The notes under the pieces were generated by a model. It was not told the DNA's origin. It was given only the letters and a program-made list of their open reading frames with translations, and made no database searches. Below are positions 1,578 to 15,038 of a stretch of DNA of 22,833 nucleotides, one piece after another; the stretch's first letter is position 1; each line of letters opens with the position of its first letter. A program made the translations under genes and the position numbers. The DNA lies in sequence record SRR31156797_535; one strand, given 5' to 3'.

Positions 1578-2264
1578 TTAGATAAGCTCCTTTGCGATCG
1601 TCTGAGCTTTTTTGAGGTCTCTGGCACTAAGTTTATAAGTGGTTTTGATACTGGCGATAACCTTCCTAGCCCTCTTATCACCGTTATTCCCAGCGCAAAT
1701 AGCCCATGCGAAACCGAGAACAGGGTCAGCCTTAGAAAGCCCCTGACCTGTACAGCATATCAGAGCGTAGTCAAGCTGGGCGTTAACAACTCCATCCATA
1801 GCTGAATCACTCATATATTCTGCCGCTTTATGAAAATCCCTGCTGATATTGACACCGCTGTAATACTCTTTTGCTGTCAGATATTTTGCTATGCGGTGTC
1901 CGCCGTCTGCCGCTTTTTCAAGCCACCTGACAGCCTCAGCTCTGTCTTTATCTGTCCCAACACCGTTAAAGTAACAAACCCCGACGTTATACATCGCCTG
2001 ATAGTGCCCTCTGTTTGCAGATTTAAACCACCAGAGGAACGACTCTTCATCATCTTTTGGGGCAGCAGAACCTTCGCTGTAAAATACTCCGAGAGTAAAC
2101 TGGCTTTCACAGTCGCCCATTTTCGCCGCTTTTAAGTAATGCTCAAAAGCAGAACCAGCATCACCTGAAAGTTCGCACTCTCTGGCGGTGTTAATAACGG
2201 TCTCTAGCTCTTCATCTGTAATACTCTTATTCAAATCAGAAACCTGTGCACCTGATAAAACCAC
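1578..2264 (-). CDS. Sel1-like repeat (SLR/TPR) protein
   Basis: Repeated Sel1 motifs: YLKAAKMGDCESQFTLGVFYSEG, WFKSANRGHYQAMYNVGVCYFNGVGTDKD, WLEKAADGGH. The start is either GTG 2264 (SD AGGGG) or TTG 2234. No clear signal peptide. Confidence 0.9.
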   Translation of the reverse strand: MVLSGAQVSDLNKSITDEELETVINTARECELSGDAGSAFEHYLKAAKMGDCESQFTLGVFYSEGSAAPKDDEESFLWWFKSANRGHYQAMYNVGVCYFNGVGTDKDRAEAVRWLEKAADGGHRIAKYLTAKEYYSGVNISRDFHKAAEYMSDSAMDGVVNAQLDYALICCTGQGLSKADPVLGFAWAICAGNNGDKRARKVIASIKTTYKLSARDLKKAQTIAKELI

Positions 2265-2320
2265 AACAACGCCCCTGCATATGCCAGCACAACTGCCAGC
2301 CCGGTAAGGCTAAGACTCAT
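2231..2320 (-). CDS. Putative small single-pass membrane protein (29 aa from ATG 2320; frame open back to 2425, 64 aa)
   Basis: Manual translation: (ISIKLILNDEDAAKLLSLDDIQVVDLDKKYEAKVV)MSLSLTGLAVVLAYAGALLWFYQVHRFLI*. It fills the gap between DUF2589 and Sel1, has TAAGGT before the ATG, and its TGA overlaps an in-frame TTG of the Sel1 gene (TTGA). Confidence 0.45.
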   Translation of the reverse strand: MSLSLTGLAVVLAYAGALLWFYQVHRFLI

Positions 2321-2421
2321 AACGACCTTAGCCTCATATTTTTTATCCAGATCAACTACTTGAATATCGTCTAAGCTTAATAACTTAGCCGCATCTTCAT
2401 CGTTTAAAATCAGCTTAATGC

Positions 2422-2991
2422 TTATTTACCTTTCGGTTTGATATCGATCGGCTCAACAGCACTCGCCAGAAGATCCATCATCTTCGCCATACCTTCCTGC
2501 GGCTGCTGCTGTCTCGCCACAACGCTTACATTGTATTTCGCTGTATTGTCTGTTGATCTTGTATTCTCTCTATGGCTTGCGACACTTCCTGATACTGACG
2601 CCTTAAAGGGACCCCATCCGCCGGATGCACTCGCCTTTGCGTCTTTATCCTCAGTCTCTTTCGACTGTGCTGACTGCTTTATCTCCATTGTAAAATCGAC
2701 ATTCACAGTCTCTATGAGAAGCGCTGGAATTGGAACCAAACCCAAAACAGGCGCCTGTATGTGAACTACTTCCGAGCCAATTGTCCCAGTGCCATCGTCA
2801 ACAGGTCTCTCGAGATCGAATGAAAGATTATTTGTAGTCCTCTTATCTCCTTCACCCAGAAAACCTATAGCTTCGATAAATTTCACCATTGTAAGAGCCA
2901 GCGCATACTGTGCCTTCGCAGCGGCATTAAGCGGCGCCCCGATAAGCTCCTCCATAGGTAATCCTCTGAACTGTTCTGCAACTCCTGCCAT
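2422..2991 (-). CDS. DUF2589-family protein (long-hairpin type)
   Basis: The N-terminus F.GLPMEELIGAPLNAAAKAQ..LA....FI..IGF, the internal PVLGLVPIPAL.I..V.VDFTMEI and the C-terminal TRSTDNTAKY.V.V.ARQQ..PEGM.K..D.L match my recollection of DUF2589. SD AGAGGA. Confidence 0.8.
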   Translation of the reverse strand: MAGVAEQFRGLPMEELIGAPLNAAAKAQYALALTMVKFIEAIGFLGEGDKRTTNNLSFDLERPVDDGTGTIGSEVVHIQAPVLGLVPIPALLIETVNVDFTMEIKQSAQSKETEDKDAKASASGGWGPFKASVSGSVASHRENTRSTDNTAKYNVSVVARQQQPQEGMAKMMDLLASAVEPIDIKPKGK

Positions 2992-3003
2992 AACTTCCTC
3001 CTA

Positions 3004-3447
3004 TTATGGGATATGTTTTAATATATGATCATTAACCTTAGCCAGCCCCTCAGGCGGCTCTGTCCCTTTCATTACTACTTTAACCTTTACCTTGCTCCCT
3101 TCTGCTTTCTTTTTAGCGGCTCCGCCGATACTCATCTGGAGCTGTTTATTCCTATCTTCACCTTCAAGGGATTCAAGTACCGCATCAAACTCTATCTCGA
3201 CCTGATCGAGCACCATTGATGTTTGAGGTACAAGGCTTATGAGAGGAACATCTATATCCACCTCCGGCTGACCTTCACTTTCATATGACGGGATTTTCAT
3301 TGTGACAGTTTTGGCAATACGCTTGCCGTCGACATCGTTAAAGAATCTTCTTATCAGAGAGAGGTGCTGTTCCTCTGCGAGCGAAGAGGCATGCATAACA
3401 GCATTAGTTAAGCCCTCTATTAAATCATCAAATTTGTGCGTAGACAT
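3004..3447 (-). CDS. DUF2589-family protein (short paralogue)
   Basis: Shares VPLISLVP...LD.VEIEF and the terminal PPEGLAKV.D motif with the neighbouring gene. SD GAGGG; first gene of the operon. Confidence 0.7.
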   Translation of the reverse strand: MSTHKFDDLIEGLTNAVMHASSLAEEQHLSLIRRFFNDVDGKRIAKTVTMKIPSYESEGQPEVDIDVPLISLVPQTSMVLDQVEIEFDAVLESLEGEDRNKQLQMSIGGAAKKKAEGSKVKVKVVMKGTEPPEGLAKVNDHILKHIP

Positions 3448-3470
3448 GTTAAGCCCTCAATAATAATCTG

Positions 3471-3500
3471 AGGATAACAATAAAAAGTAACATAACGCAA
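3471..3500 (-). promoter_or_regulatory. Candidate sigma70 promoter for the DUF2589 operon
   Basis: The minus strand reads TTGCGT-18 nt-TATCCT with a TG extended -10. It lies downstream of the ackA terminator, so a separate promoter is expected here. Confidence 0.35.
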
Positions 3501-3564
3501 ACAAACATTGCGACATAACATCAATGCTTAGGTTATAATATTTTTTTATATACTTTTAGGATAG

Positions 3565-3599
3565 AAAAAAGCCGCACATCTGAAACAGACATACGGCTT
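3565..3599 (-). terminator. Rho-independent terminator of pta-ackA
   Basis: Minus strand AAGCCGTATGTCTG-TTT-CAGATGTGCGGCTT-TTTT: a 14-bp stem including G-U pairs, running into a U tract, just after the ackA stop. Confidence 0.85.
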
Positions 3600-3625
3600 A
3601 TATAAAATGAAACTCTTAAGAGTTA

Positions 3626-4876
3626 TTATTTAAGGAATGAGTATGGGTACTCAGTATGCGGCTTGTAGCTGTCGTTAAGGATCGCAACAACGTCCTCAAC
3701 AAAAACAAGCTCTTCGTTTGTAGGGATTACATACACTTTAACCTTAGAGTCAGGTGTAGAAATCTCTGTCTCGCCGTGCTTAGAGAATGTAGAAAGGTTT
3801 TTATCCTTGTCCACAACTATTCCCATCTGCTCAAGACCTTCGAGAGCCATCTGGCGTATAGCACCAGCATTCTCACCGACACCAGCAGTAAAGACTATAG
3901 CGTCAAGCCTGCCGAGTACAGCGTAGTAAGAGCCGATGTATTTACGAAGTCTGTAGGACTCAACATCTATAGCGAGTGTACATCTGTGTTTATAATCGCC
4001 GTCCTCACACATGAGAACGTCACGTCTGTCAGTATATTTACCTGTGAGACCGAGGATACCTGATTTCTTGTTAAGGATGTTATCCATAGTCTTAGCGTCG
4101 ATATCAAGCTGCTGCTGCATGAAAAGCGGAACAGCCGGATCGATATCACCGCATCTTGTTCCCATCACAGCACCTTCAAGCGGAGTAAGCCCCATAGATG
4201 TATCCACGGAGACACCATTCTTAATAGCTGTATGAGAAACACCATTACCTATATGCATTGTGATGATGTTACAGTCTTTTGCATCTTTACCGAGGAGAGC
4301 CGCAGCACGCTTTGAAACGTAAAGGTGGCTTGTTCCGTGGAAACCGTAACGTCTTACGCCGTGCTCTTCGTACCACTCGTAAGGTACTGGATACATATAA
4401 GCTTCCTCAGGCATTGTCTGATGGAAAGCTGTGTCGAAGATAGCAACGTGAGGGATGCTAGGCATAACCTTCTGAGCCGCTCTGATACCTGCGAGGTTTG
4501 GCGGGTTATGAAGCGGAGCGAGATGCTGAACATCTTCGATAGTTTTGATTACGTCTTCAGTGAGGAGTACGGAGCTTGCGAACTTGTCACCACCGTGTAC
4601 AACTCTGTGCCCTACAGCAGAGATTTTGTCCATGCTGTCGAGAACTTTGCAGTCGCCTGTTGTAAGAGTTCTAACGATAAGTGATACCGCAGTTGAGTGG
4701 TCGTGGCACTCGTACTCTTCTCTATGTGTGTCCATGCCGTCAGCTTCGTGGACGATAAATGAATCACCAATACCGATTCTCTCCACTACACCTTTAGCAA
4801 TAACTTTCTTGTTGTCCCAGTCGTAAAGCTGGTATTTAACTGAGGAGCTACCGCAGTTAAGAGCTAATATATCCAT
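3626..4876 (-). CDS. ackA: Acetate kinase
   Basis: Motifs LNCGSSSVK, GHRVVHGG, APLHNP, FDTAFH, RRYGFHGTSH, MGLTPLEG, FTAGVGEN, PTNEE. The start is corrected to ATG 4876 (MDILAL), which has a GGAGG SD. Confidence 0.97.
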   Translation of the reverse strand: MDILALNCGSSSVKYQLYDWDNKKVIAKGVVERIGIGDSFIVHEADGMDTHREEYECHDHSTAVSLIVRTLTTGDCKVLDSMDKISAVGHRVVHGGDKFASSVLLTEDVIKTIEDVQHLAPLHNPPNLAGIRAAQKVMPSIPHVAIFDTAFHQTMPEEAYMYPVPYEWYEEHGVRRYGFHGTSHLYVSKRAAALLGKDAKDCNIITMHIGNGVSHTAIKNGVSVDTSMGLTPLEGAVMGTRCGDIDPAVPLFMQQQLDIDAKTMDNILNKKSGILGLTGKYTDRRDVLMCEDGDYKHRCTLAIDVESYRLRKYIGSYYAVLGRLDAIVFTAGVGENAGAIRQMALEGLEQMGIVVDKDKNLSTFSKHGETEISTPDSKVKVYVIPTNEELVFVEDVVAILNDSYKPHTEYPYSFLK

Positions 4877-6154: not shown

Positions 6155-7531
6155 ATGAGTAGCCTAAAGTATAACTGTGAAACTAAAATACAGTCTGACG
6201 TACATACTGCTTTCGAGTGGCACGAGCGCGAAGGAGCCCTGCAAAGGCTTACACCGCCTTGGGAAAAGATCGAGCTGGTGGAGAAGAATGACGGTATCGA
6301 TGTAGGTGCGACATGCACTATTAACGTCGGTACAGGCTTCTTCAGCATACCCTGGCAGGCTGAGCATATCGAGTATTACAAAGACAAGCATTTTAAAGAC
6401 AGACAAAACTCCGGTCCCTTCTCTCTGTGGGAGCATTCTCATGACTTCGAAGAGGAGAACGGTGTTACAACTATAAAGGACTCAGTTGAGTATAAGCTAC
6501 CCCTTCATTCCATTTCAAAACACATTGCAGGTTTTGTTATAAAAAATAAACTCGACAAGATGTTTTCATACAGAAAGTCCGTCTCTAAACACGATATTGA
6601 GACCATAAAAAAGTACAACATACAGCCAAAAACTATTGTCGTTTCCGGTGCTACCGGTGTTGTCGGCTCATCTCTCATCCCATATCTTCAAACTCAGGGA
6701 CATAAGATCATCCGACTTGTACGAAATGAAAGACAGCTCTGCATTGGTGATGTCTGCTGGAATCCTAATGCTGAAATCATCGAAGACCAGTTTGAGGATG
6801 CCGATGTCGTAGTTCACCTAGCGGGCGAACCTATCGGAAACGAGAACTGGACAAACGAAAAGAAACTATCAATCGTAGACAGTAGAGTGCGTAGCACAAG
6901 CCTGCTTGCGAAAACTATAGCTAACATGAAAAATCCGCCAAAACTCCTCATATGCGCATCCGCCATAGGCTATTACGGTGACAGAGGCGATGAGGTTCTC
7001 ACCGAAGAGGACGAGACAGGGAAAGACTTTATCTCTCACGTCTGTTATCAGTGGGAAAAAGCGGCAAAAGCTGCTGAGGATAGGGGTATCAGAGTTGTCT
7101 ATCTGAGGATAGGCGTGGCACTCTCACCTGCGGGCGGAGCACTTGCAAAGACATATAAACCTACATCCTACGGGCTTGGAACCGTGATAGGCAGCGGAGA
7201 TCAACACCTTAGCTGGGTCGGGATGGACGATGTCCTCTATGCTATGACTCATATAATGGAGACAGAAAGCATATCCGGTGCTGTAAACTTGACCGCACCA
7301 AACCCTGTGCGGTGGAAAGAGTATTCTGATACACTTGCGTCTGTAATGAACAGACCAAGATTTTTGAAAGTACCAACATGGCTTATCAAGATGGTTTACG
7401 GTCAGATGGGGAAGGAAGTTCTCCTTTCAAGTGCCAACGTACAGCCGAAGAAGCTACTCGACAGCGGGTTTGAGTTTAAGTACCCAACCCTCGATTCTGC
7501 TCTCAAACATTTACTCGGGAGGAGCAAATGA
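6155..7531 (+). CDS. TIGR01777 (YfcH-like) NAD-dependent epimerase-family protein with an N-terminal SRPBCC/START-like domain
   Basis: N-terminal AFEWHEREGALQRLTPPW...GPFSLWEHSHDF...DSVEYKLP (SRPBCC-like); Rossmann VSGATGVVG; HLAGEPI, SRV.ST, ASAIGYYG, LRIGVALS..GGAL; C-terminal P.KLLDSGFEFKYP. Confidence 0.88.
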   Translation: MSSLKYNCETKIQSDVHTAFEWHEREGALQRLTPPWEKIELVEKNDGIDVGATCTINVGTGFFSIPWQAEHIEYYKDKHFKDRQNSGPFSLWEHSHDFEEENGVTTIKDSVEYKLPLHSISKHIAGFVIKNKLDKMFSYRKSVSKHDIETIKKYNIQPKTIVVSGATGVVGSSLIPYLQTQGHKIIRLVRNERQLCIGDVCWNPNAEIIEDQFEDADVVVHLAGEPIGNENWTNEKKLSIVDSRVRSTSLLAKTIANMKNPPKLLICASAIGYYGDRGDEVLTEEDETGKDFISHVCYQWEKAAKAAEDRGIRVVYLRIGVALSPAGGALAKTYKPTSYGLGTVIGSGDQHLSWVGMDDVLYAMTHIMETESISGAVNLTAPNPVRWKEYSDTLASVMNRPRFLKVPTWLIKMVYGQMGKEVLLSSANVQPKKLLDSGFEFKYPTLDSALKHLLGRSK

Positions 7532-8625
7532 GCGTTCAACTCCGAATTGTTTTTATGATAACCATGACAATTGCTCTCTCTTTTGGGTTTATGCACCACT
7601 ATATACCTGAATATAACTTTGAAAGGCTCCACATATTCCTGTTTAACCTTTGTACAGGCGGAACAATTATCCTTTACTTCACAATGGAGAAGGATAGGAT
7701 GACTAAAAGACTATACGTCTTCTTCTTCCTTTCGTTTGTATACGCTTTTCTAGCCTTCTTCGAGTTCTACGCCCTTGCTATCGCTGTATCTCTGGTTCTC
7801 TTTATAATAGTCGAGTCGGTGCGAAACATGAGATTTGACTTCTTTCCGAAAGATTTTTTCACCATGAAAGTGCCAACAGCTCAGAAATTCCATCACGCTG
7901 CTCTTCTCTGCTTGTCTATGGGGCTTCTCATGTCGATCTCTGCGATTATTAATCAGGAATACTACACTTTTCTGCACTCAGAAAAGCTGACACTGAATAC
8001 ATTCTTCCTCGGATTCTCCTTCCCTGTCTCGCTCATATCGTTAAGCGTTATGTTCACCACTATGCACAAGGCTAAAAGCAGCCTCTTTAGAATATTAAAA
8101 GTAGTCTCTTTCTGGGTGATCACGCTCGGCGTCATAATATTCTTCTCCTTTATACTGTTTGAAGCAATAATCCTTGAGCTTATAATATCACTGATACTCT
8201 TTGCCGGAGTATCTACAGTGCTATACCTTTACATAAAGTTAGGGATCAAAGAGCAACAGAAGGCTTACCTTACATCCGGGATATTCTTCCTTCTCATGAC
8301 ATCGATATCTGGTGTTATATACATACTGATATACGCATACGGATACACAGACCCACTTTACAGGGATATGACAATTGTCTATCACAGGACACTTGCTCTT
8401 TACGGCTGGAACATCAGCGGGCTTGCTGTTATCTGCAGGTTCAAAGACTTCCCTATCATGCTTCACTCCGGCCCGGCTATTGTCCTGCATTGGCTCATCG
8501 TCGGTTTCCTTGCTCCGGCGGCTATCTTCAGCTCGGCTTTTGTTATACCAACAGTTGGTGCATATCTACTTTTCCTCTTTGCAGTTTTCTTTTCTAAAGG
8601 TAATTACAAAATAAGGGAATTTTGA
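7528..8625 (+). CDS. Polytopic membrane protein of unknown function (roughly 11-12 TM helices)
   Basis: Very hydrophobic 365-aa ORF with an ATGA overlap with the upstream gene. His residues sit at helix positions (ERLHIF, KFHHAAL, YHRTLALYGW, VLHWL). Confidence 0.8.
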   Translation: MSVQLRIVFMITMTIALSFGFMHHYIPEYNFERLHIFLFNLCTGGTIILYFTMEKDRMTKRLYVFFFLSFVYAFLAFFEFYALAIAVSLVLFIIVESVRNMRFDFFPKDFFTMKVPTAQKFHHAALLCLSMGLLMSISAIINQEYYTFLHSEKLTLNTFFLGFSFPVSLISLSVMFTTMHKAKSSLFRILKVVSFWVITLGVIIFFSFILFEAIILELIISLILFAGVSTVLYLYIKLGIKEQQKAYLTSGIFFLLMTSISGVIYILIYAYGYTDPLYRDMTIVYHRTLALYGWNISGLAVICRFKDFPIMLHSGPAIVLHWLIVGFLAPAAIFSSAFVIPTVGAYLLFLFAVFFSKGNYKIREF

Positions 8626-8662
8626 TATACTATATCGTGTGGTTATATACTTGCGGGGTTTT

Positions 8663-9766
8663 ATGATGACTGCTTTACGTCTTTTTGCTCTTTTTTCTAT
8701 ATTCTTTATCACTTCACAAGCTTTTTGTGCAAACGGTATGGAATACTACACAATTGACGAATACTTTAAAATCAACAGGCAACAGAGAGAGCTTACAGAA
8801 ATCTTTGCTTTCAAAGTTTCTGACAGTGCCAAACTCATCAAGAAACGCATTAAGTCCCCTATAAGAATAGCTGTAGTCTACCCTGCAATACAGCAGTCAA
8901 ATTACTGGCGTGATTCTGTTAAGTCAATGACAGCAAGGCTTGATGAATCCGGAATCAAATACGAACTATTCAAATATTTCAGCAGACCATCAGGAGACTA
9001 CAGGCTCCAGGCGATGCACCTTAATGAAGCATCGAAAGGGGATATGGACTATATCATACTATCAGTTGATAACTCTAATGTCAGAAGGCTTATCCCTAGC
9101 CTGCTCACAAAAGATAAACCTAAAATAATGATTCAGAACCTCACAACGCCTATTAAAGCGTGGGATTCTCATAAACCATTCATGTACGTGGGCTTTGATC
9201 ATATAGAGGGTTCTAAGCTGATAGCGGAACACTATAGCAAAATATTTCCTAAGGGGGCAAACTACCTCCTTCTATACGGTCCGAAAGGAACCGTAAGTAC
9301 GCTCAGAGGCGGCGGTTTTGAAAGCTATGGACTTTCCAAGGGTTTTGTTCCTGTTGCGAAGTATTATACCGATTTCGATTTTCAGAAATCGTATGAAGCG
9401 ACAAAACATGCCCTCGAAAAGCATAAAGAGATCAATTTCGTATACGCATGCTCAACAGATATAGCACTCGGAGCTTCAAAGGCTATCGACGAGGCAGGAC
9501 TGATTGATAAGGTGATAATCAACGGCTGGGGCGGAACTATGAATGAGCTGGAGCTCATCAGCAAGAAGAAACTTAATTTCACTGTTATGAGAATGAACGA
9601 TGACAACGGTGTCGCAATTTCTGAAGCTATAAAAATGGATATCATGGGCAAAGGCGACAATGTCCCTGACATCTTTAGCGGCGAATTTGTCACCATTACA
9701 AAGGATATGACCTGGGAAACTATTAGCACATATATTGAGAGGGCTTTAAGATATTCCAGAAAATAG
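8663..9766 (+). CDS. luxP: Autoinducer-2-binding periplasmic protein, LuxP family
   Basis: Signal peptide MMTALRLFALFSIFFITSQAFC-A. LuxP signatures VVYPAIQQSNYW, IQNLTTP, YVGFDHIEGS, STLRG, YACSTDIALGA, INGWGG, TVMRMNDDNGVAISEAIK. The start is taken at ATG 8663 (or 8666), after GGGG. Confidence 0.9.
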   Translation: MMTALRLFALFSIFFITSQAFCANGMEYYTIDEYFKINRQQRELTEIFAFKVSDSAKLIKKRIKSPIRIAVVYPAIQQSNYWRDSVKSMTARLDESGIKYELFKYFSRPSGDYRLQAMHLNEASKGDMDYIILSVDNSNVRRLIPSLLTKDKPKIMIQNLTTPIKAWDSHKPFMYVGFDHIEGSKLIAEHYSKIFPKGANYLLLYGPKGTVSTLRGGGFESYGLSKGFVPVAKYYTDFDFQKSYEATKHALEKHKEINFVYACSTDIALGASKAIDEAGLIDKVIINGWGGTMNELELISKKKLNFTVMRMNDDNGVAISEAIKMDIMGKGDNVPDIFSGEFVTITKDMTWETISTYIERALRYSRK

Positions 9767-9819
9767 GTAAAGCTGAAGGCTTAAGACTCTATTACTTTTT
9801 CATAGTCTCTATTCTGGCT

Positions 9820-12800
9820 ATGGCGATCATACTTTCACTAACCATGTTTGTGATTAGTAATAAATTTATACGCAGTACCTTTGAAAAAAAATCTGCTGAT
9901 ATCACCAAAATGAACTCAGACATCGCAAAAATGGTTCTCGATAAAAGAGCTGCCATCCTTAAAAACTCTAACCACGACATAGAGTTCCTCTTTGCAAGTA
10001 AAGCTGACACATTTCTAAGTGGTGACATAGCGACTTTTGAAAATGACATCATCTCACTATACGATTCATCATTTGCTAACGATGTTGATGTTTTCTTCTT
10101 CGAGTCAGCTAAGGGCGACTACATCTTCGATGCGAGCACACCTTTTTACGATACCAGTAAAATCAAAACATATATGACAGCAAACGGCAGATTTCTCAGA
10201 AACGGGATTAAGCTCATACAGTCTGAATCATCCAGCGGGATTCTCATCGCTCTCTCCGGTTCATCAGAAGTGATAAGCCCAACGACCGGCGAGCTAGCAG
10301 GTTATTTCTATACAGGGATAATTCTCAACAGCTCCGCAGGGCTTATAAGCGAAATCATTACATCAACAAACATCTCTGAGGCTGCAATCATCTACGGTGA
10401 CACAATCATCGCAGGGAATAACAGTAAGCCCACAGAAGACATAATAAACATCTGCTACAACAGCAAAGATGTAATTATCTCGAAAACTGAGGTAGCATAC
10501 TGCTCAGACATCCTTATCAGCCAAGAGGGGATTAACCTTAAATTTTATCAAAGCTTGCCTGACTCATTTATAGGGAATGTTATCAACCAGAACAAAAAGA
10601 TGGGATATATAGCTATCGCAATAGTTTCAATTATCACCATAATCGCCGGATATTTTATGAATCTGATCACGGTTAGGTCACTTTATCGTGTTATCGATTA
10701 TACTAAGCTGCTTCTTTCCGGTGAAAACACTGAGTATAAATATTCTCTTATATTCGAGTTTAATATGCTCGCCGACCGGATTGCCGGTGTGAGCGATGAC
10801 CTGACTGAAACTCAGGCTTATATGAAAAATCTGATCAATAACGCTCAGGCTCCTATAGCAATTTGGGATAAGAATGGCAATATCACGCTTTTCAACAACT
10901 CACTTGAAAAATTCTCAGGCTATGAAAGTGAACAGGTTCTCGGAAAGCATCTGAGCCACATCTACAGCATTTTCCCTTATGCAAATGTTTCAGTAGACAA
11001 GGCTGACCAGCATGAATCTACTGCGACACAATTCGAATCTGTTCTTATACATAAAACAAACGGTATGAAGAGTGTTATCCTGTGGAACCTCACTGATGTT
11101 TATAATGAAAGTGAATACTCAGGAACTATTCTGCAAGGTATCGACATTACTGAAATCAAGGCCGCAGAGGATAAAATGCTGCTCGCCTCAAAGGTTTTTG
11201 AAAATGCTCTGGACGGTATGGTTGTTATAAATGTTGCTGGTGATATTATCTCATGCAACGAATCATTCGCAAAGATGACAGGCTATTCCAAGCTTGAACT
11301 GCCGGGGAAGAATGCAAAAATTTTCAGACCGGATGATCACTCTCCAGATTTTTACAAGATTATGCTCGATCACCTTAAACACTACGGTAAATGGAGCGGT
11401 GAGGCCTGGCAGAGAAAGAAAAACGGCGAAACATTCCCTGCTATCATAACTATTTCAACAATCAGAAGCCCACGTGGTGAGGTGACTGACTATGTAACTG
11501 CCGTACACGATATTACTGAGCGTAAGAAATACGAAGACGATATAAAGTATCAGGCAACCCATGACATCCTTACAGGTATGCCAAACAGGCTCTATTTCAC
11601 TGAAACTCTAGCTAATTGCATCGATGATGATGTTGAGCACAAAGGTCTTAGTGTTATGTTTCTGGACCTTGACAGGTTTAAAAATCTCAACGACACACTA
11701 GGACACTCCACAGGTGACAGGATCCTTGAGATACTATCTGAAAGAATCAAAAATATCGTCCGCCCGACAACTATTGCAGCGAGATTCAGCGGTGATGAAT
11801 TCACTTTCCTCTTCACTGATATAAAGGACAAAGAAGATATACAGACCCGGGCTAATACGATAATCAGTAAAATATCCGAACCTTTGATTGTTCAGGGTTA
11901 CGAGCTTTTCATACAGATGAGCGCAGGTATCAGCTTCTACCCTAAAAATGGAAAAACAGCGTCAGAGCTGATAAAAAATGCTGAGATAGCTATGTTTCAG
12001 GCGAAATCAAAAGGTAGAAACAACGTTCAGTTCTTCTCAGATAATTTAGGCAACAAACTTCAGGAGAGGCTTGTCCTCGAATCAAAGCTCAACAGGGCAA
12101 TTGAGAACGATGAATTCACCCTTTATTATCAGCCTAAGATCGACCTTACAGACAATAAAATAATGGGTATGGAAGCACTCCTCAGATGGAAAAACCCTGA
12201 GCTTGGCTTCACCCCGCCGGATGTGTTCATACCTATCGCAGAAGAGAACGGACTCATACTTCCTATTGGCGAATGGGTTATGGAGAGAGCGCTCAAAGAC
12301 ACAGCGGAGCTTCACAGAATTGGTCATGATCAGCTAAAAGTTGCGATAAACCTATCGCTTCGTCAATTCATGAAAAAGGATCTTGCCAATTACATAAAAA
12401 TAACGAAAGAGAGTGCCGGCGTAGATAATATGAGCTTTGAGCTTGAAATCACAGAGAGCATCTTTACCGAAGACCTTAATACTATATCGAAGATAATGAC
12501 CAGCATCAGCGCACTTAACATTAAGTTCGCTATTGATGACTTCGGAACAGGATACAGCTCAATAGGTTATTTGAAAAAAATGCCTATCAACACCCTTAAG
12601 ATTGATAAAAGCTACATCGGAACCATGGATACCAATCAGGACAACGCCTCTATTGTAGCCTCGGTAATACTTATGGCGAAAAGCCTCGGGCTCGCTGTTG
12701 TGGCAGAAGGTGCTGAAACTGATTCACAAGTTAGTATACTCAAAGACTTAGGTTGTGATATAGTCCAAGGCTATTACTACGGCAGACCTATGCCTTACGA

Positions 12801-12843
12801 TGAGTTCCTTAATTTCCTAGAAACGTGGAACAAAGGAGAATAA
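9820..12843 (+). CDS. Membrane sensor: TM / LuxQ-like periplasmic domain / TM / HAMP-like linker / PAS / PAS / GGDEF / EAL (c-di-GMP turnover enzyme)
   Basis: Periplasmic TGELAGYFYTGIILNSS resembles the LuxQ sensor domain as I recall it. Second TM MGYIAIAIVSIITIIAGYFM; two PAS domains ending GIDITE and VHDITE; HDILTGMPNR, DLDRFKNLND.LGH, RFSGDEF; EALLRW, ELEITE, DDFGTGYSS, KIDKS, AEGAET, QGYY. The true start is probably upstream of 9820. Confidence 0.9.
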   Translation: MAIILSLTMFVISNKFIRSTFEKKSADITKMNSDIAKMVLDKRAAILKNSNHDIEFLFASKADTFLSGDIATFENDIISLYDSSFANDVDVFFFESAKGDYIFDASTPFYDTSKIKTYMTANGRFLRNGIKLIQSESSSGILIALSGSSEVISPTTGELAGYFYTGIILNSSAGLISEIITSTNISEAAIIYGDTIIAGNNSKPTEDIINICYNSKDVIISKTEVAYCSDILISQEGINLKFYQSLPDSFIGNVINQNKKMGYIAIAIVSIITIIAGYFMNLITVRSLYRVIDYTKLLLSGENTEYKYSLIFEFNMLADRIAGVSDDLTETQAYMKNLINNAQAPIAIWDKNGNITLFNNSLEKFSGYESEQVLGKHLSHIYSIFPYANVSVDKADQHESTATQFESVLIHKTNGMKSVILWNLTDVYNESEYSGTILQGIDITEIKAAEDKMLLASKVFENALDGMVVINVAGDIISCNESFAKMTGYSKLELPGKNAKIFRPDDHSPDFYKIMLDHLKHYGKWSGEAWQRKKNGETFPAIITISTIRSPRGEVTDYVTAVHDITERKKYEDDIKYQATHDILTGMPNRLYFTETLANCIDDDVEHKGLSVMFLDLDRFKNLNDTLGHSTGDRILEILSERIKNIVRPTTIAARFSGDEFTFLFTDIKDKEDIQTRANTIISKISEPLIVQGYELFIQMSAGISFYPKNGKTASELIKNAEIAMFQAKSKGRNNVQFFSDNLGNKLQERLVLESKLNRAIENDEFTLYYQPKIDLTDNKIMGMEALLRWKNPELGFTPPDVFIPIAEENGLILPIGEWVMERALKDTAELHRIGHDQLKVAINLSLRQFMKKDLANYIKITKESAGVDNMSFELEITESIFTEDLNTISKIMTSISALNIKFAIDDFGTGYSSIGYLKKMPINTLKIDKSYIGTMDTNQDNASIVASVILMAKSLGLAVVAEGAETDSQVSILKDLGCDIVQGYYYGRPMPYDEFLNFLETWNKGE

Positions 12844-12844
12844 C

Positions 12845-13612
12845 TTGGCGATCGGTATTTTTGACTCTGGTGTCGGCGGGCTTACAGTTTATAAAACTAT
12901 CAGCGAACACTTCCCAAACCTTGACATACACTACCTCGGTGACACTGCCCGTGTTCCTTACGGAAGCAGGTCAAAAGAGACAGTTATAACCTACAGCCTT
13001 CAGTGTGCTGATTTCCTCATGAGTAATTTCGACATAGAAACTATTGTCGTAGCTTGCAATACAGCTTCGTCTTACGCAATAGACCAGATAAGAGAGAAGT
13101 ACGGAGTTAACGTCATCGGAGTTGTTGAGCCTGGTGCTGAAAGTGCTGTTGCTGTGACAGAAAATAGCAATATAGGCGTGATCGGAACCCGTGCCACAGT
13201 CCGAAGCGAATCATACATCAAAGCACTTAGAAACCTTCGTCCGGAGCTAAGTATAGATCAGACTGCATGTCCGCTTTTTGTTCCCGTCGTGGAAGAGATG
13301 CTGATAGAGACAGATTTCGCAGAAAACATTGTTAAACACTATTTAGACGACCTGACATCAAAAGGGTGCGATACACTCATTCTCGGCTGTACTCACTATC
13401 CGCTGCTGAAAAGTGTTATCTCAGGGCTTTATCCACATGTCAACATTGTTGACTCATCCGAAGCTATCGTAGGCTATATCAAGCGCTTAGGAATTAATAC
13501 TGACCAAAGCGGCAAGCGTGAGATATACCTTACTGACGAATCACCTGCATTTGAAACATTAAAAAATGTCCTTGCCGGCGGGATAACTGCCCAAAAAGCG
13601 ACACTCACATAA
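12845..13612 (+). CDS. murI: Glutamate racemase
   Basis: Motifs IGIFDSGVGGLTV, DTARVPYG, VVACNTAS, LILGCTHYP. TTG start after AAGGAG. Confidence 0.97.
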   Translation: MAIGIFDSGVGGLTVYKTISEHFPNLDIHYLGDTARVPYGSRSKETVITYSLQCADFLMSNFDIETIVVACNTASSYAIDQIREKYGVNVIGVVEPGAESAVAVTENSNIGVIGTRATVRSESYIKALRNLRPELSIDQTACPLFVPVVEEMLIETDFAENIVKHYLDDLTSKGCDTLILGCTHYPLLKSVISGLYPHVNIVDSSEAIVGYIKRLGINTDQSGKREIYLTDESPAFETLKNVLAGGITAQKATLT

Positions 13613-15038
13613 GTGCATCTTTACAAATATCCCCGATACGCTCAATCCCGCTTTCTATACGTTCATCCAAAGGATGCCCGCAGTTAATACGCATAAAATT
13701 ATGATACCTGTCCTGTGAGCTGAAAATAGCCCCCGGTGTAAAAGAGATATTCTCATTCAGAGTTTTAGGAAGTAGCTCGTTTGTATCTATCCCATCAGGA
13801 AGCTCCACCCACAGAACAAAACCACCGCTCGGCTCAGAAATCTTTGTCCCTTCCGGAAAGTATTTCAATATCTTCATAGTGTAAGCCTGAATCTGATTTT
13901 TTATGGCGTTGTTCATCTTACGCATGTGTCTCGGGTATTTACCCGATGCAAGATAGTGTGCAATAGTAAGCTGAGTAACTTCGTTAGTCGCCATGGATGT
14001 CGCAATCTTCTGTCTGAGTATAGGATTAAGATATTTACCAGCCTCAATCCACCCGACACGCATACCTGAGCTAAGTGTTTTAGAGAAAGATGAGATGTGG
14101 ATAACATTCCCGTCAGTATCATATTTCTTAAGATTGCTTCCACGTTTACCGTTAAAAGCGAAATCACCATTAATATCGTCCTCAATAATAGGCACATTAA
14201 ACCTGCTGCAAATCTCGACAATCTCCTTCTTAACCTCTTCAGGGTAGCTGTGCCCCATAGGGTTACCGAAGTTCGGCTGAGTCAGGAACGCCTTTACACC
14301 GTAGCGCTTAATAGCGTTATAAAGGTCTTCGATTTCAATACCATACTCAGGGCAGGTTGGAAGCTCCATGGCAAAAACTTTACTAGTCTCAAGCAGATGC
14401 ATAAAACCGAAATAGCTAGGCGACTCCATAACGATAAGATCACCCGGGCTTGTAAGTGCATGGAGAGCGAGGGACATACCCTCAGATGCACCGTTTGTCA
14501 CTATTATATTATCAGAATGCACTGAGTTCCCGTTCATATTCATATAGTAAGCGAGTTGCTGACGAAAGAACTTTGCCCCCTGAGTGTTCCCGTACTCCAT
14601 ATTGCTGTGATTATCCATATTAAGAACTTTCTTCATAATATTAAGAAGTTCCTTATGTGGTAATAACTCAGAGGAGGGGATAGCACACCCCAAAGGGATT
14701 ATCGCAGGGTTTACCATAGCGTCCAGTACAGTTTGTATATGCTCACTGTTAGTCACCTGCATAGGCTGCTTGCTAGGTTTTGTCTTCGCCATCTGCTCCC
14801 TAGGCGCAAACGTACCTTTTGAAACGTAAAAACCCGACTGAGGCTTAGCCTCTAAAACCCCAACAGTTTCAAGTTCCATGTAAGCTTGCATAACAGTTGA
14901 GATACTTACAGCCTGATCTTCACTCATGCGGCGGAGGGACGGAACTTTATCTCCTGGCTTCAAAACTTCATTTTTCACCATATTGACAATGACATCCATC
15001 ACCTGCCTGAATTTAAACTCTGCTTTCACTTTAGACAT
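13605..15038 (-). CDS. MocR/GabR-subfamily GntR regulator (wHTH plus PLP-dependent aminotransferase-like domain)
   Basis: N-terminal LKPGDKVPSLR...VSISTVMQAY.ELE..G...KPQSGFYV; C-terminal NP.G, IIEDD, SSFSKTL..GMRVGW (PLP lysine). It converges on murI with an 8-bp overlap. Confidence 0.93.
   Translation of the reverse strand: MSKVKAEFKFRQVMDVIVNMVKNEVLKPGDKVPSLRRMSEDQAVSISTVMQAYMELETVGVLEAKPQSGFYVSKGTFAPREQMAKTKPSKQPMQVTNSEHIQTVLDAMVNPAIIPLGCAIPSSELLPHKELLNIMKKVLNMDNHSNMEYGNTQGAKFFRQQLAYYMNMNGNSVHSDNIIVTNGASEGMSLALHALTSPGDLIVMESPSYFGFMHLLETSKVFAMELPTCPEYGIEIEDLYNAIKRYGVKAFLTQPNFGNPMGHSYPEEVKKEIVEICSRFNVPIIEDDINGDFAFNGKRGSNLKKYDTDGNVIHISSFSKTLSSGMRVGWIEAGKYLNPILRQKIATSMATNEVTQLTIAHYLASGKYPRHMRKMNNAIKNQIQAYTMKILKYFPEGTKISEPSGGFVLWVELPDGIDTNELLPKTLNENISFTPGAIFSSQDRYHNFMRINCGHPLDERIESGIERIGDICKDALM

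Follow-up and report, generated by a model that had tools for sequence, protein, structure and literature searches.

A luxP gene adjoining a LuxQ-type GGDEF-EAL sensor gene in a Denitrovibrio-clade bacterium: a predicted path from autoinducer-2 to cyclic di-GMP

We analysed a stretch of DNA of 22,833 nucleotides from sequence record SRR31156797_535 (hereafter the window, meaning this whole stretch; position 1 is its first letter). On its plus strand, a luxP gene (8663–9766), encoding a periplasmic protein of the autoinducer-2 (AI-2) binding type, is followed by a gene for a membrane protein (9763–12843) in which a LuxQ-type periplasmic sensor is joined to PAS, PAS, GGDEF and EAL domains. We conclude that the two genes probably are translationally coupled and encode an AI-2 receptor whose output is the turnover of cyclic di-GMP (c-di-GMP), not a phosphorelay. 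To our knowledge, AI-2 is the most widespread bacterial signal. In Vibrio, LuxP binds the periplasmic domain of LuxQ and the signal runs through LuxU and LuxO. The original prediction, made from the window alone, had proposed that this LuxPQ input was grafted onto a second-messenger output in an apparently non-Vibrio anaerobe. As for the host, the source DNA is, judging by its DnaK, a chromosomal piece of a member of the Denitrovibrio clade of the phylum Deferribacterota, in agreement with that proposal: the window DnaK is 91% identical to those of genomes G028 and G001, 90% to that of G002 and 89% to that of G003. Denitrovibrio is also the origin of the named close homologues of the membrane protein.

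A LuxP-family protein encoded beside a LuxQ-type membrane sensor

The luxP open reading frame (ORF) is intact over 1104 nt from an ATG at 8663; the earliest possible start is an in-frame GTG at 8639. When its product (P0001) was compared with the PDB by phmmer, the Vibrio harveyi LuxP entries 4yp9, 1zhh_A, 1jx6 and 2hj9_A had E-values of 1.7e-81 to 2.7e-81, whereas the best binding protein other than LuxP reached only 2.6e-14. Judged by these matches, the window protein is a true member of the LuxP family. Its N-terminus is a probable Sec signal peptide, MMTALRLFALFSIFFITSQAFC (8663–8728, plus strand), recognised by inspection of the translation and with an approximate cleavage site; the PDB alignment to mature LuxP begins at residue 36. 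At E ≤ 1e-20, 431 homologues of the window LuxP were found.

The membrane-protein ORF, on the same strand, is intact over 3081 nt and comprises 1026 codons from an ATA at 9763, or 1007 aa (P0002, whose numbering is used below) from the first ATG at 9820. Kyte-Doolittle hydropathy placed one transmembrane segment at 9787–9855 (residues 9–31 of the extended product, score 2.1–2.8) and a second at 10600–10674, the latter inside a long C-terminal helix (residues 248–289) of an AlphaFold2 model. These two segments flank a predicted periplasmic double-PAS (dCache-like) sensor domain of the LuxQ type at 9865–10599, in keeping with the topology first read from the translation, that of a periplasmic domain between two membrane segments.

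Several comparisons bear on the nature of this domain. The Pfam model LuxQ-periplasm (PF09308), a check suggested with the original prediction, matched residues 33–241 (9916–10542) at 36.2 bits, above its cut-off of 25.7 (E 6.2e-9), and NCBIfam, the PDB search and the predicted fold agreed with it. With the single sequence as query, phmmer found the periplasmic domain of Vibrio cholerae LuxQ (3c30) at 6.5e-7. In this match the segment TGELAGYFYTGIILNSSAGLISEI, attributed to LuxQ in the original prediction, indeed aligned to the conserved LuxQ stretch G-x-V-x-G-Y-x-Y-x-G-I-x-L-N. The AlphaFold2 model of residues 1–290, built with no templates from an alignment (A3) that includes Vibrio sequences, had a pLDDT of 89.4 and a pTM of 0.80. 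When it was submitted to Foldseek, the top six matches were six entries of LuxQ periplasmic domains (E 9e-11 to 4e-10, target-normalised TM scores of 0.63–0.75), followed by ordinary dCache amino-acid chemoreceptor domains at about 1e-7. A search of the PDB with the A3 profile reached LuxQ at 6e-58; since V. harveyi LuxQ is one of the A3 sequences, we gave this value no weight.

The likeness to LuxQ extends beyond the second membrane segment. The first cytoplasmic PAS domain (10837–11154; Pfam PAS_4, residues 340–445) falls within a match to the NCBIfam model LuxQ_Vibrio that covers residues 30–459 (E 1.2e-26, 92.9 bits against a cut-off of 1200). On these similarities, both the periplasmic loop and the first cytoplasmic PAS are LuxQ-like.

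The enzyme half and the direction of c-di-GMP turnover

The second cytoplasmic PAS (11194–11514; Pfam PAS, residues 459–565) opens a part of the protein that resembles phosphodiesterases of the DibA type. The NCBIfam DibA model (NF045675) aligned over positions 65–620 of its 623 with residues 441–995, which form the C-terminal half (E 5e-165, 550 bits, against an equivalog cut-off of 980). DibA-type proteins as modelled lack a LuxQ-type membrane sensor, unlike the window protein. Since LuxQ_Vibrio matches residues 30–459 and the DibA type residues 441–995, the junction of the chimera would lie after the first cytoplasmic PAS. A GGDEF domain (11554–12024; residues 579–735, E 5.5e-44) and an EAL domain (12085–12789; residues 756–990, E 6.4e-70) follow. 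Among the 10 Pfam families that matched the membrane protein at E ≤ 0.01 there was no HisKA, HATPase_c or Response_reg, in accordance with the PAS-PAS-GGDEF-EAL reading of the original prediction, which had likewise seen neither kinase nor receiver motifs. With none of the three present, a LuxU/LuxO phosphorelay would be impossible. As there is no kinase, LuxU and LuxO would not be needed either, and LuxO-like sigma-54 regulators are in any case non-diagnostic.

The catalytic signature of the EAL domain is intact: EALLR (12172–12186), NLS, EITES, DDFGTGYSS, KID, EGAE and QG can all be recognised. Its catalytic residues do not vary among the 15 close family members compared, and the signature is retained across clades, in every partner that has an EAL domain. 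The GGDEF domain has SGDEF at its A-site (11788–11802) and retains the metal/GTP motif D-x-D-x-F-K-x-x-N-D; five residues upstream of the A-site, where an RxxD I-site would stand, the sequence is RPTT. The window protein and all its Deferribacterota relatives preserve this metal/GTP motif together with the DEF of the A-site, and G658, D659 and F661 are invariant in the full-length family alignment (A1). When relatives of the same architecture were aligned, the A-site read SGDEF in the window, L081 and L082; GGDEF in L083, L174, Stappia, Neptuniibacter and Marinobacterium; GGDEY in five Deferribacterales loci; and NADEF or NADEY in four loci of the Oceanospirillum type (L093, L095, L118 and L124). 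The EAL signature is constant while the A-site varies, which points to hydrolysis as the conserved output. From these motifs, cyclase activity is possible in the window protein and would not be required by the family.

ScrC alternates between cyclase and diesterase, and SGDEF cyclases can be active, as in Pectobacterium ECA3270. The window protein might likewise be a bifunctional switch, with an SGDEF cyclase and an EAL phosphodiesterase toggled by AI-2-bound LuxP. The metal/GTP motif, the DEF of the A-site and the three invariant residues speak for such a switch, and ScrB-ScrC offers a precedent, being a GGDEF-EAL receptor driven by a binding protein that answers an autoinducer-like S-signal (PMC8050422; papers are cited here and below from parts of their text). 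Set against this, the window, L081 and L082 have another residue in place of the first glycine of GGDEF, the I-site is missing, and the best NCBIfam relatives are phosphodiesterases (DibA, PRK10060 and DosP). In addition, the NADEF/NADEY proteins make up a whole clade of the same architecture, which indicates that cyclase activity is dispensable for the family. We hold the bifunctional switch to be possible and rather unlikely, and take the EAL domain as the output of the receptor since it is the sole output feature conserved in all relatives that have the domain.

Autoinducer-2 contacts of LuxP

The residues of V. harveyi LuxP reported by Chen and colleagues in 2002 to contact S-THMF-borate (AI-2) are Q77, S79, W82, N159, R215, T266, W289 and R310. 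In the 365-aa V. harveyi protein, all eight positions carry these residue types. All eight residues are identical in the window LuxP (Q85, S87, W90, N167, R223, T273, W297 and R318 in P0001 numbering), and none of the eight alignment columns varies among 22 LuxP homologues drawn from five phyla. Together with the PDB matches, this leaves the original reading of a clear LuxP gene well founded.

The producer of the signal would be another organism. With the Pfam LuxS model, which was positive in 5 of 14 known genomes used as a control, LuxS was found in none of 68 Deferribacterota genomes, whose completeness is not reported; for the window organism, where the original prediction had seen no luxS nearby, this result serves as a proxy. 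According to the supplement of PMC12268683, Denitrovibrio acetiphilus and Geovibrio thiophilus have LuxP and lack LuxS. Because no genome of the phylum encodes LuxS, any AI-2 sensed would come from other species.

The same lack of self-made AI-2 might suggest that LuxP binds something else, another furanosyl compound or a borated diol, so that the system would report a nutrient or environmental cue. Also compatible with such a ligand are the family of the protein, Peripla_BP_4 in Pfam, which has the ribose-binding-protein fold and brings RbsB-type secondary matches, and its modest identity to V. harveyi LuxP (40.7% over 366 aa by BLASTP, with the latter protein read from L148). The identity and invariance of the eight contacts argue against it, as does the behaviour of an orthologue: D. 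acetiphilus LuxP (P0029 in our set) is 55% identical to the window protein, and D. acetiphilus LuxP WP_013012133.1 carried 46.9–55.1-fold AI-2 activity when purified from a LuxS+ host, compared with about 1.0 from a LuxS- host (iScience 2025, PMC12268683). A ligand other than AI-2 thus appears improbable.

Distribution of LuxP and its sensor partners

The original prediction had called for a survey of this architecture across taxa. We collected LuxP loci with one genome per species and examined the best 80 of 501 by similarity to the window LuxP, a ranking because of which the sample leans away from Vibrio. As the partner, a script took the next same-strand ORF; this yielded 77 partners, with no qualifying ORF in L103, L107 and L116. 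By Pfam, 35 of the 77 partners are GGDEF-EAL proteins and one has GGDEF only; 21 are kinases with no receiver and 17 are hybrid kinases with a receiver (from Vibrio, Terasakiella and one member of the Desulfobacteraceae). The others are one chemoreceptor, one gene cut by a contig end and one unrelated gene, for methylmalonyl-CoA mutase, 475 nt away. Signalling proteins make up 76 of the 77, and 71 of the 77 match Pfam LuxQ-periplasm. The graft onto a second-messenger output put forward in the original prediction is supported, and the survey adds that it is not unique: judged from these loci, the GGDEF-EAL pairing is widespread and not peculiar to the window organism.

Two LuxPs, those of L103 (Terasakiella sp. 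A23) and L141 (a Methylocystaceae metagenome-assembled genome, MAG), form a well-supported pair in the tree described below and lack a sensor gene immediately after luxP, where L141 has the gene for methylmalonyl-CoA mutase. These are possibly orphan LuxPs.

Searches from the side of the sensor gave a complementary picture. Sixteen proteins emerged when the sensor region served as query in a word-based search; 14 of them were full length, with the same Pfam set and 52–89% identity. A search for related loci with the membrane protein alone gave 79 pattern matches, none of which was confirmed. A locus search with the full-length alignment A1 brought up 605 stretches, mostly generic GGDEF-EAL proteins, and these loci (L001–L080) were excluded from the counts. 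For a census independent of LuxP, we searched 1.84 billion cluster representatives with the A3 profile. The threshold of E ≤ 1e-3 was passed by 415 clusters, and that of E ≤ 1e-30 by 138. The best 150 clusters were classed with small home-made hidden Markov models, three of whose assignments were confirmed by Pfam: 51 were kinases, 45 hybrid kinases, 17 GGDEF-EAL proteins, 2 GGDEF proteins and 2 chemoreceptors. No output was found in the other 33, mostly fragments; Pfam applied to seven of these identified two fusions to SpoIIE-type phosphatases and five pieces with PAS only. Outputs acting on c-di-GMP thus account for about 16% of the classed LuxQ-type sensors and form the largest class among the LuxP loci nearest the window. 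Altogether, LuxQ-type sensors have outputs of at least six types: hybrid kinase, simple kinase, GGDEF-EAL, GGDEF, chemoreceptor and PP2C phosphatase. The fusions of LuxQ-type domains to SpoIIE/PP2C phosphatases and to HAMP-MCP chemoreceptors were seen in cluster representatives P0162 and P0191, in L102, and in P0147 and P0148; in L102, from Ca. Vecturithrix, the chemoreceptor gene adjoins the LuxP gene.

Within the Deferribacterota, LuxP (E ≤ 1e-40) was present in 11 of the 68 genomes. The genomes with a LuxQ-type sensor are these same 11, each with one copy adjacent to luxP, and no sensor was detected in the remaining 57; as several of the genomes contributed to the sensor profile, it is the lack of a match elsewhere that is informative. 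Each of the five nearest genomes has one strong sensor match, located beside luxP; in G003 another, weak match (E 6.6e-6) lies at a distance of about 9.5 kb. The partner is a GGDEF-EAL protein in 10 of the 11 genomes and a hybrid kinase in one.

In an 81-row LuxP tree computed with IQ-TREE (LG+G4, with ultrafast bootstrap and SH-aLRT), the window LuxP falls in a clade of six Deferribacterota rows with support of 100/99. In a quick LuxP tree, LuxPs with GGDEF-EAL partners form three groups: the Deferribacterota, an 18-row clade consisting mostly of Oceanospirillaceae plus Halomonas and Psychromonas, and the Stappiaceae. When the rows were labelled by partner output, the tree required 4 changes compared with a mean of 26.8 after shuffling, and none of 500 shuffles gave so low a number; at least three of the four changes are forced by well-supported branches. 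Constraining all 37 GGDEF(-EAL) rows together, a group defined after the tree was seen, cost 19.0 log-likelihood units and was not rejected (p-AU 0.199). The GGDEF-EAL pairing may have had one origin or several.

One could imagine that luxP and the membrane-protein gene are mere neighbours, with LuxP serving a distant transporter or chemoreceptor while the membrane protein senses directly through its Cache-like or PAS domains. LsrB-type AI-2 binding proteins do supply transporters and Tsr (PMC7584622), and the portions of PMC12268683 cited here, which mention no partner, treat LuxP as a sensor working by itself, "for transport into the cell". Moreover, dCache domains often bind small ligands directly, and the next-best folds for our model were amino-acid chemoreceptor domains. 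This idea fits poorly with the lack of ABC transporter genes in the window, the overlap of the luxP stop with the probable start codon of the sensor gene, the strict co-occurrence of the two genes with a single strong sensor copy in the five nearest relatives, the adjacency conserved across phyla, and the way in which LuxP clades track the output type of the partner. We consider it very improbable.

The junction between the two genes

From the upstream stop to position 9820, the frame of the membrane protein contains no ATG, GTG or TTG. An ATA codon in this frame (9763–9765) overlaps the luxP stop codon TAG (9764–9766), forming the sequence ATAG (9763–9766, plus strand). The 19 codons ahead of 9820 stay in frame, encode a conserved G[LF]R[LI]Y..FF motif and complete the first membrane helix, which is whole only if translation starts upstream of ATG 9820. 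The codon at the overlap is ATG (in ATGA) in L081 and ATA in the window (ATAG) and in L082, L083 and L172 (ATAA). The membrane-protein gene most likely begins at ATA 9763, 57 nt upstream of the first ATG, and comparison of the five Denitrovibrio-clade loci points to translational coupling with an ATA start in four of them. ATA is a weak start codon in bacteria, and with such a start, coupled to termination at luxP, little receptor would be made compared with LuxP. Gene callers put the start of the sensor gene at the later ATG; the probable ATA start is a small, testable case of non-canonical initiation.

Damaged copies of the sensor gene were found in two relatives. In L172 (G028:C1:3090300-3095700), the gene for a 466-aa DDE transposase (2758–4158, plus strand) lies between luxP and the sensor gene; it was inserted just past the conserved GLRLSYF codons, inside the 5' end of the sensor gene. 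In L083 (G003:C11, from Denitrovibrio sp. MAG BM704), an in-frame TAA at about 7600 interrupts the conserved ...ALxGSSE... stretch of the sensor, and the annotated protein (P0018, 819 aa) has no LuxQ-type domain. The L083 gene is either a pseudogene or the product of an assembly error.

These two cases, the want of a usual start codon before 9820, a first membrane segment of only about 13 hydrophobic residues when counted from that ATG, and a conservation of luxP and the sensor gene (51–64%) below that of the flanks (70–84%; window compared with the loci of relatives) could together suggest that the module is decaying, a change from ATG to ATA having silenced or truncated the membrane protein and left a relic. 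Decay seems a most unlikely explanation, as neither ORF is interrupted along its length (1104 and 3081 nt), all catalytic and ligand residues are retained, and ATA occupies the same overlap in four of five Denitrovibrio-clade loci whose LuxPs share only 51–64% identity. That the ATA recurs and that the 19 codons after it stay in frame and conserved argue for a start codon in use.

Flanking genes

In L081, a Deferribacterales MAG, the gene order is the same as in the window: epimerase, a 365-aa membrane protein, luxP, the sensor gene and a racemase. The 365-aa protein (7528–8625, plus strand), directly upstream of luxP, is polytopic and belongs to no Pfam family. Its gene is preceded by a DUF1731 epimerase-like gene, whose stop it overlaps with its start, and the protein has the same length and 80–84% identity in L081–L083, being far more conserved than LuxP (51–64%) or the sensor. 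The gene for an Asp/Glu racemase-family protein (12845–13612, plus strand) starts 1 nt past the stop of the sensor gene and is syntenic in L081–L083 (75–78% identity). A convergent gene for a GntR-aminotransferase (MocR-type) regulator (13605–15038, minus strand) overlaps its end. No AI-2 connection is evident for the racemase-family gene or the MocR-type regulator.

Elsewhere, the window holds the housekeeping genes ackA-pta and hrcA-grpE-dnaK-dnaJ, two tandem DUF2589 genes followed by one for a Sel1-repeat protein (1578–3447, minus strand) and two ORFs of no Pfam family (2–565 and 534–1577). A scan of the window, weak as evidence, counted 29 promoter-like sites where 18.7 ± 4.2 were expected and 5 terminator-like sites where 5.3 were expected; in the same weak scan, no plus-strand terminator-like site lay between 7470 and 13800.

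Discussion

By homology and gene linkage, LuxP would dock on the periplasmic domain of the sensor, as in Vibrio LuxPQ, and the binding of AI-2, foreign to the cell and made by other species, would rearrange the assembly. The change would then travel via the second membrane segment and the PAS domains and alter, in one direction or the other, the hydrolysis of c-di-GMP by the EAL domain, while the SGDEF domain may act as a weak cyclase or a GTP sensor.

Some observations weigh against the assignment of an AI-2 receptor acting on c-di-GMP. The sensor domain is just 20.9% identical to that of V. harveyi LuxQ over 163 aa, and its Pfam score of 36.2 bits compares with 192–331 bits for Vibrio LuxQ, so that LuxP may meet a different binding surface. 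Counted from the first ATG, the first transmembrane segment is too short, and the start that we propose is non-canonical. The copies damaged in L083 and G028 suggest that the module is dispensable. The two extra PAS domains could bring in other inputs that dominate, and the absence of luxS is judged for the window organism by proxy, from genomes of the phylum whose completeness is not reported. Finally, we infer both the binding of LuxP to the sensor and the effect of AI-2 on the enzyme from sequence.

The design joins two known things, the LuxPQ periplasmic switch and the GGDEF-EAL receptors driven by binding proteins. With LuxP-LuxQ of V. harveyi and V. cholerae (PDB 1JX6, 1ZHH, 2HJ9 and 3C30) it shares an orthologous LuxP with identical AI-2 contacts, the gene order of luxP followed by the sensor, a LuxQ-type periplasmic domain between two membrane segments and a LuxQ-like first cytoplasmic PAS. 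It differs in the output, which is PAS-GGDEF-EAL in place of HisKA, HATPase_c and receiver domains, in a sensor only about 21% identical, and in a host phylum lacking LuxS. NspS-MbaA of V. cholerae and ScrB-ScrC of V. parahaemolyticus resemble the window system in that an orphan binding protein, encoded beside a two-pass, dCache-like GGDEF-EAL protein, controls c-di-GMP. This likeness is one of design, and we treat the systems as analogues. Their binding proteins belong to SBP_bac_8 and SBP_bac_3, whereas the window LuxP belongs to Peripla_BP_4; their ligands are polyamines and the S-signal, whereas AI-2 is the predicted ligand here; and the periplasmic domains of MbaA and ScrC are not annotated as LuxQ-periplasm, unlike the window sensor.

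AI-2 also alters c-di-GMP through the CahR-type dCache_1 diguanylate cyclase, YeaJ (GAPES1-GGDEF) and AsrK-AsrR of V. furnissii (PMC7584622, PMC12268683 and PMC11796354, in part), in one case via a dCache kinase and a response-regulator diesterase (PMC11796354). According to the same portions of these papers, all three bind AI-2 in their own sensor domain and, where tested, prefer the non-borated form. The window system, in contrast, would capture AI-2 with a separate LuxP and relay the signal to a LuxQ-type domain.

We found no description of a LuxP-coupled GGDEF-EAL receptor in open-access papers and bioRxiv, subscription journals lying outside the search. In the sections cited, PMC8050422 pairs LuxP only with the LuxQ kinase, names NspS-MbaA and ScrB-ScrC as the only GGDEF-EAL receptors driven by binding proteins and gives, in its Table 1, the autoinducer-like S-signal for ScrB. 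Table 1 of PMC4822843, as a part of that paper, counts 115 LuxQ-periplasm proteins, of which 112 are kinases and one is a c-di-GMP enzyme that receives no comment there. The excerpted text of preprint 10.1101/2020.11.15.381053 held nothing further on a LuxP-GGDEF-EAL pairing.

As to its range, LuxP is still described as limited to Vibrio or nearly so, being confined to Vibrio in PMC7584622 and restricted to Vibrionales and Oceanospirillales in PMC6022435, in the passages concerned, while LuxP homologues in Desulfovibrio are noted in a part of PMC8586430. The broad survey of PMC12268683 counted 267 LuxP proteins, two of them in Deferribacterota; in its cited parts, LuxP is reported from other phyla and the question of its partner is not raised. 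Fusion of the LuxQ-type sensor to c-di-GMP enzymes is, by our survey, a major conserved form found in three bacterial groups.

We also put forward a broader reading which, taken as a whole, we hold with less than even confidence. Outside the Vibrionaceae, LuxP-type sensing would be mostly a portable two-protein periplasmic sensor, not a phosphorelay, with an output that is specific to the lineage. Its c-di-GMP version, the commonest among the LuxP loci nearest the window, may be as old as the kinase version. The luxS-less Deferribacterota would use it as a dedicated eavesdropping device that turns the borated AI-2 of their neighbours directly into a change in c-di-GMP and so into a choice between attaching and swimming, and the receptor would be made scarce relative to LuxP by an ATA start that depends on ribosomes terminating at luxP. 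Apart from this broader reading, the pairing would link an interspecies signal by a short and testable path to the messenger of biofilm formation and motility, in organisms that do not make the signal. Its varied partners are naturally occurring chimeras in which the action of the LuxPQ periplasmic switch on different cytoplasmic outputs can be studied.

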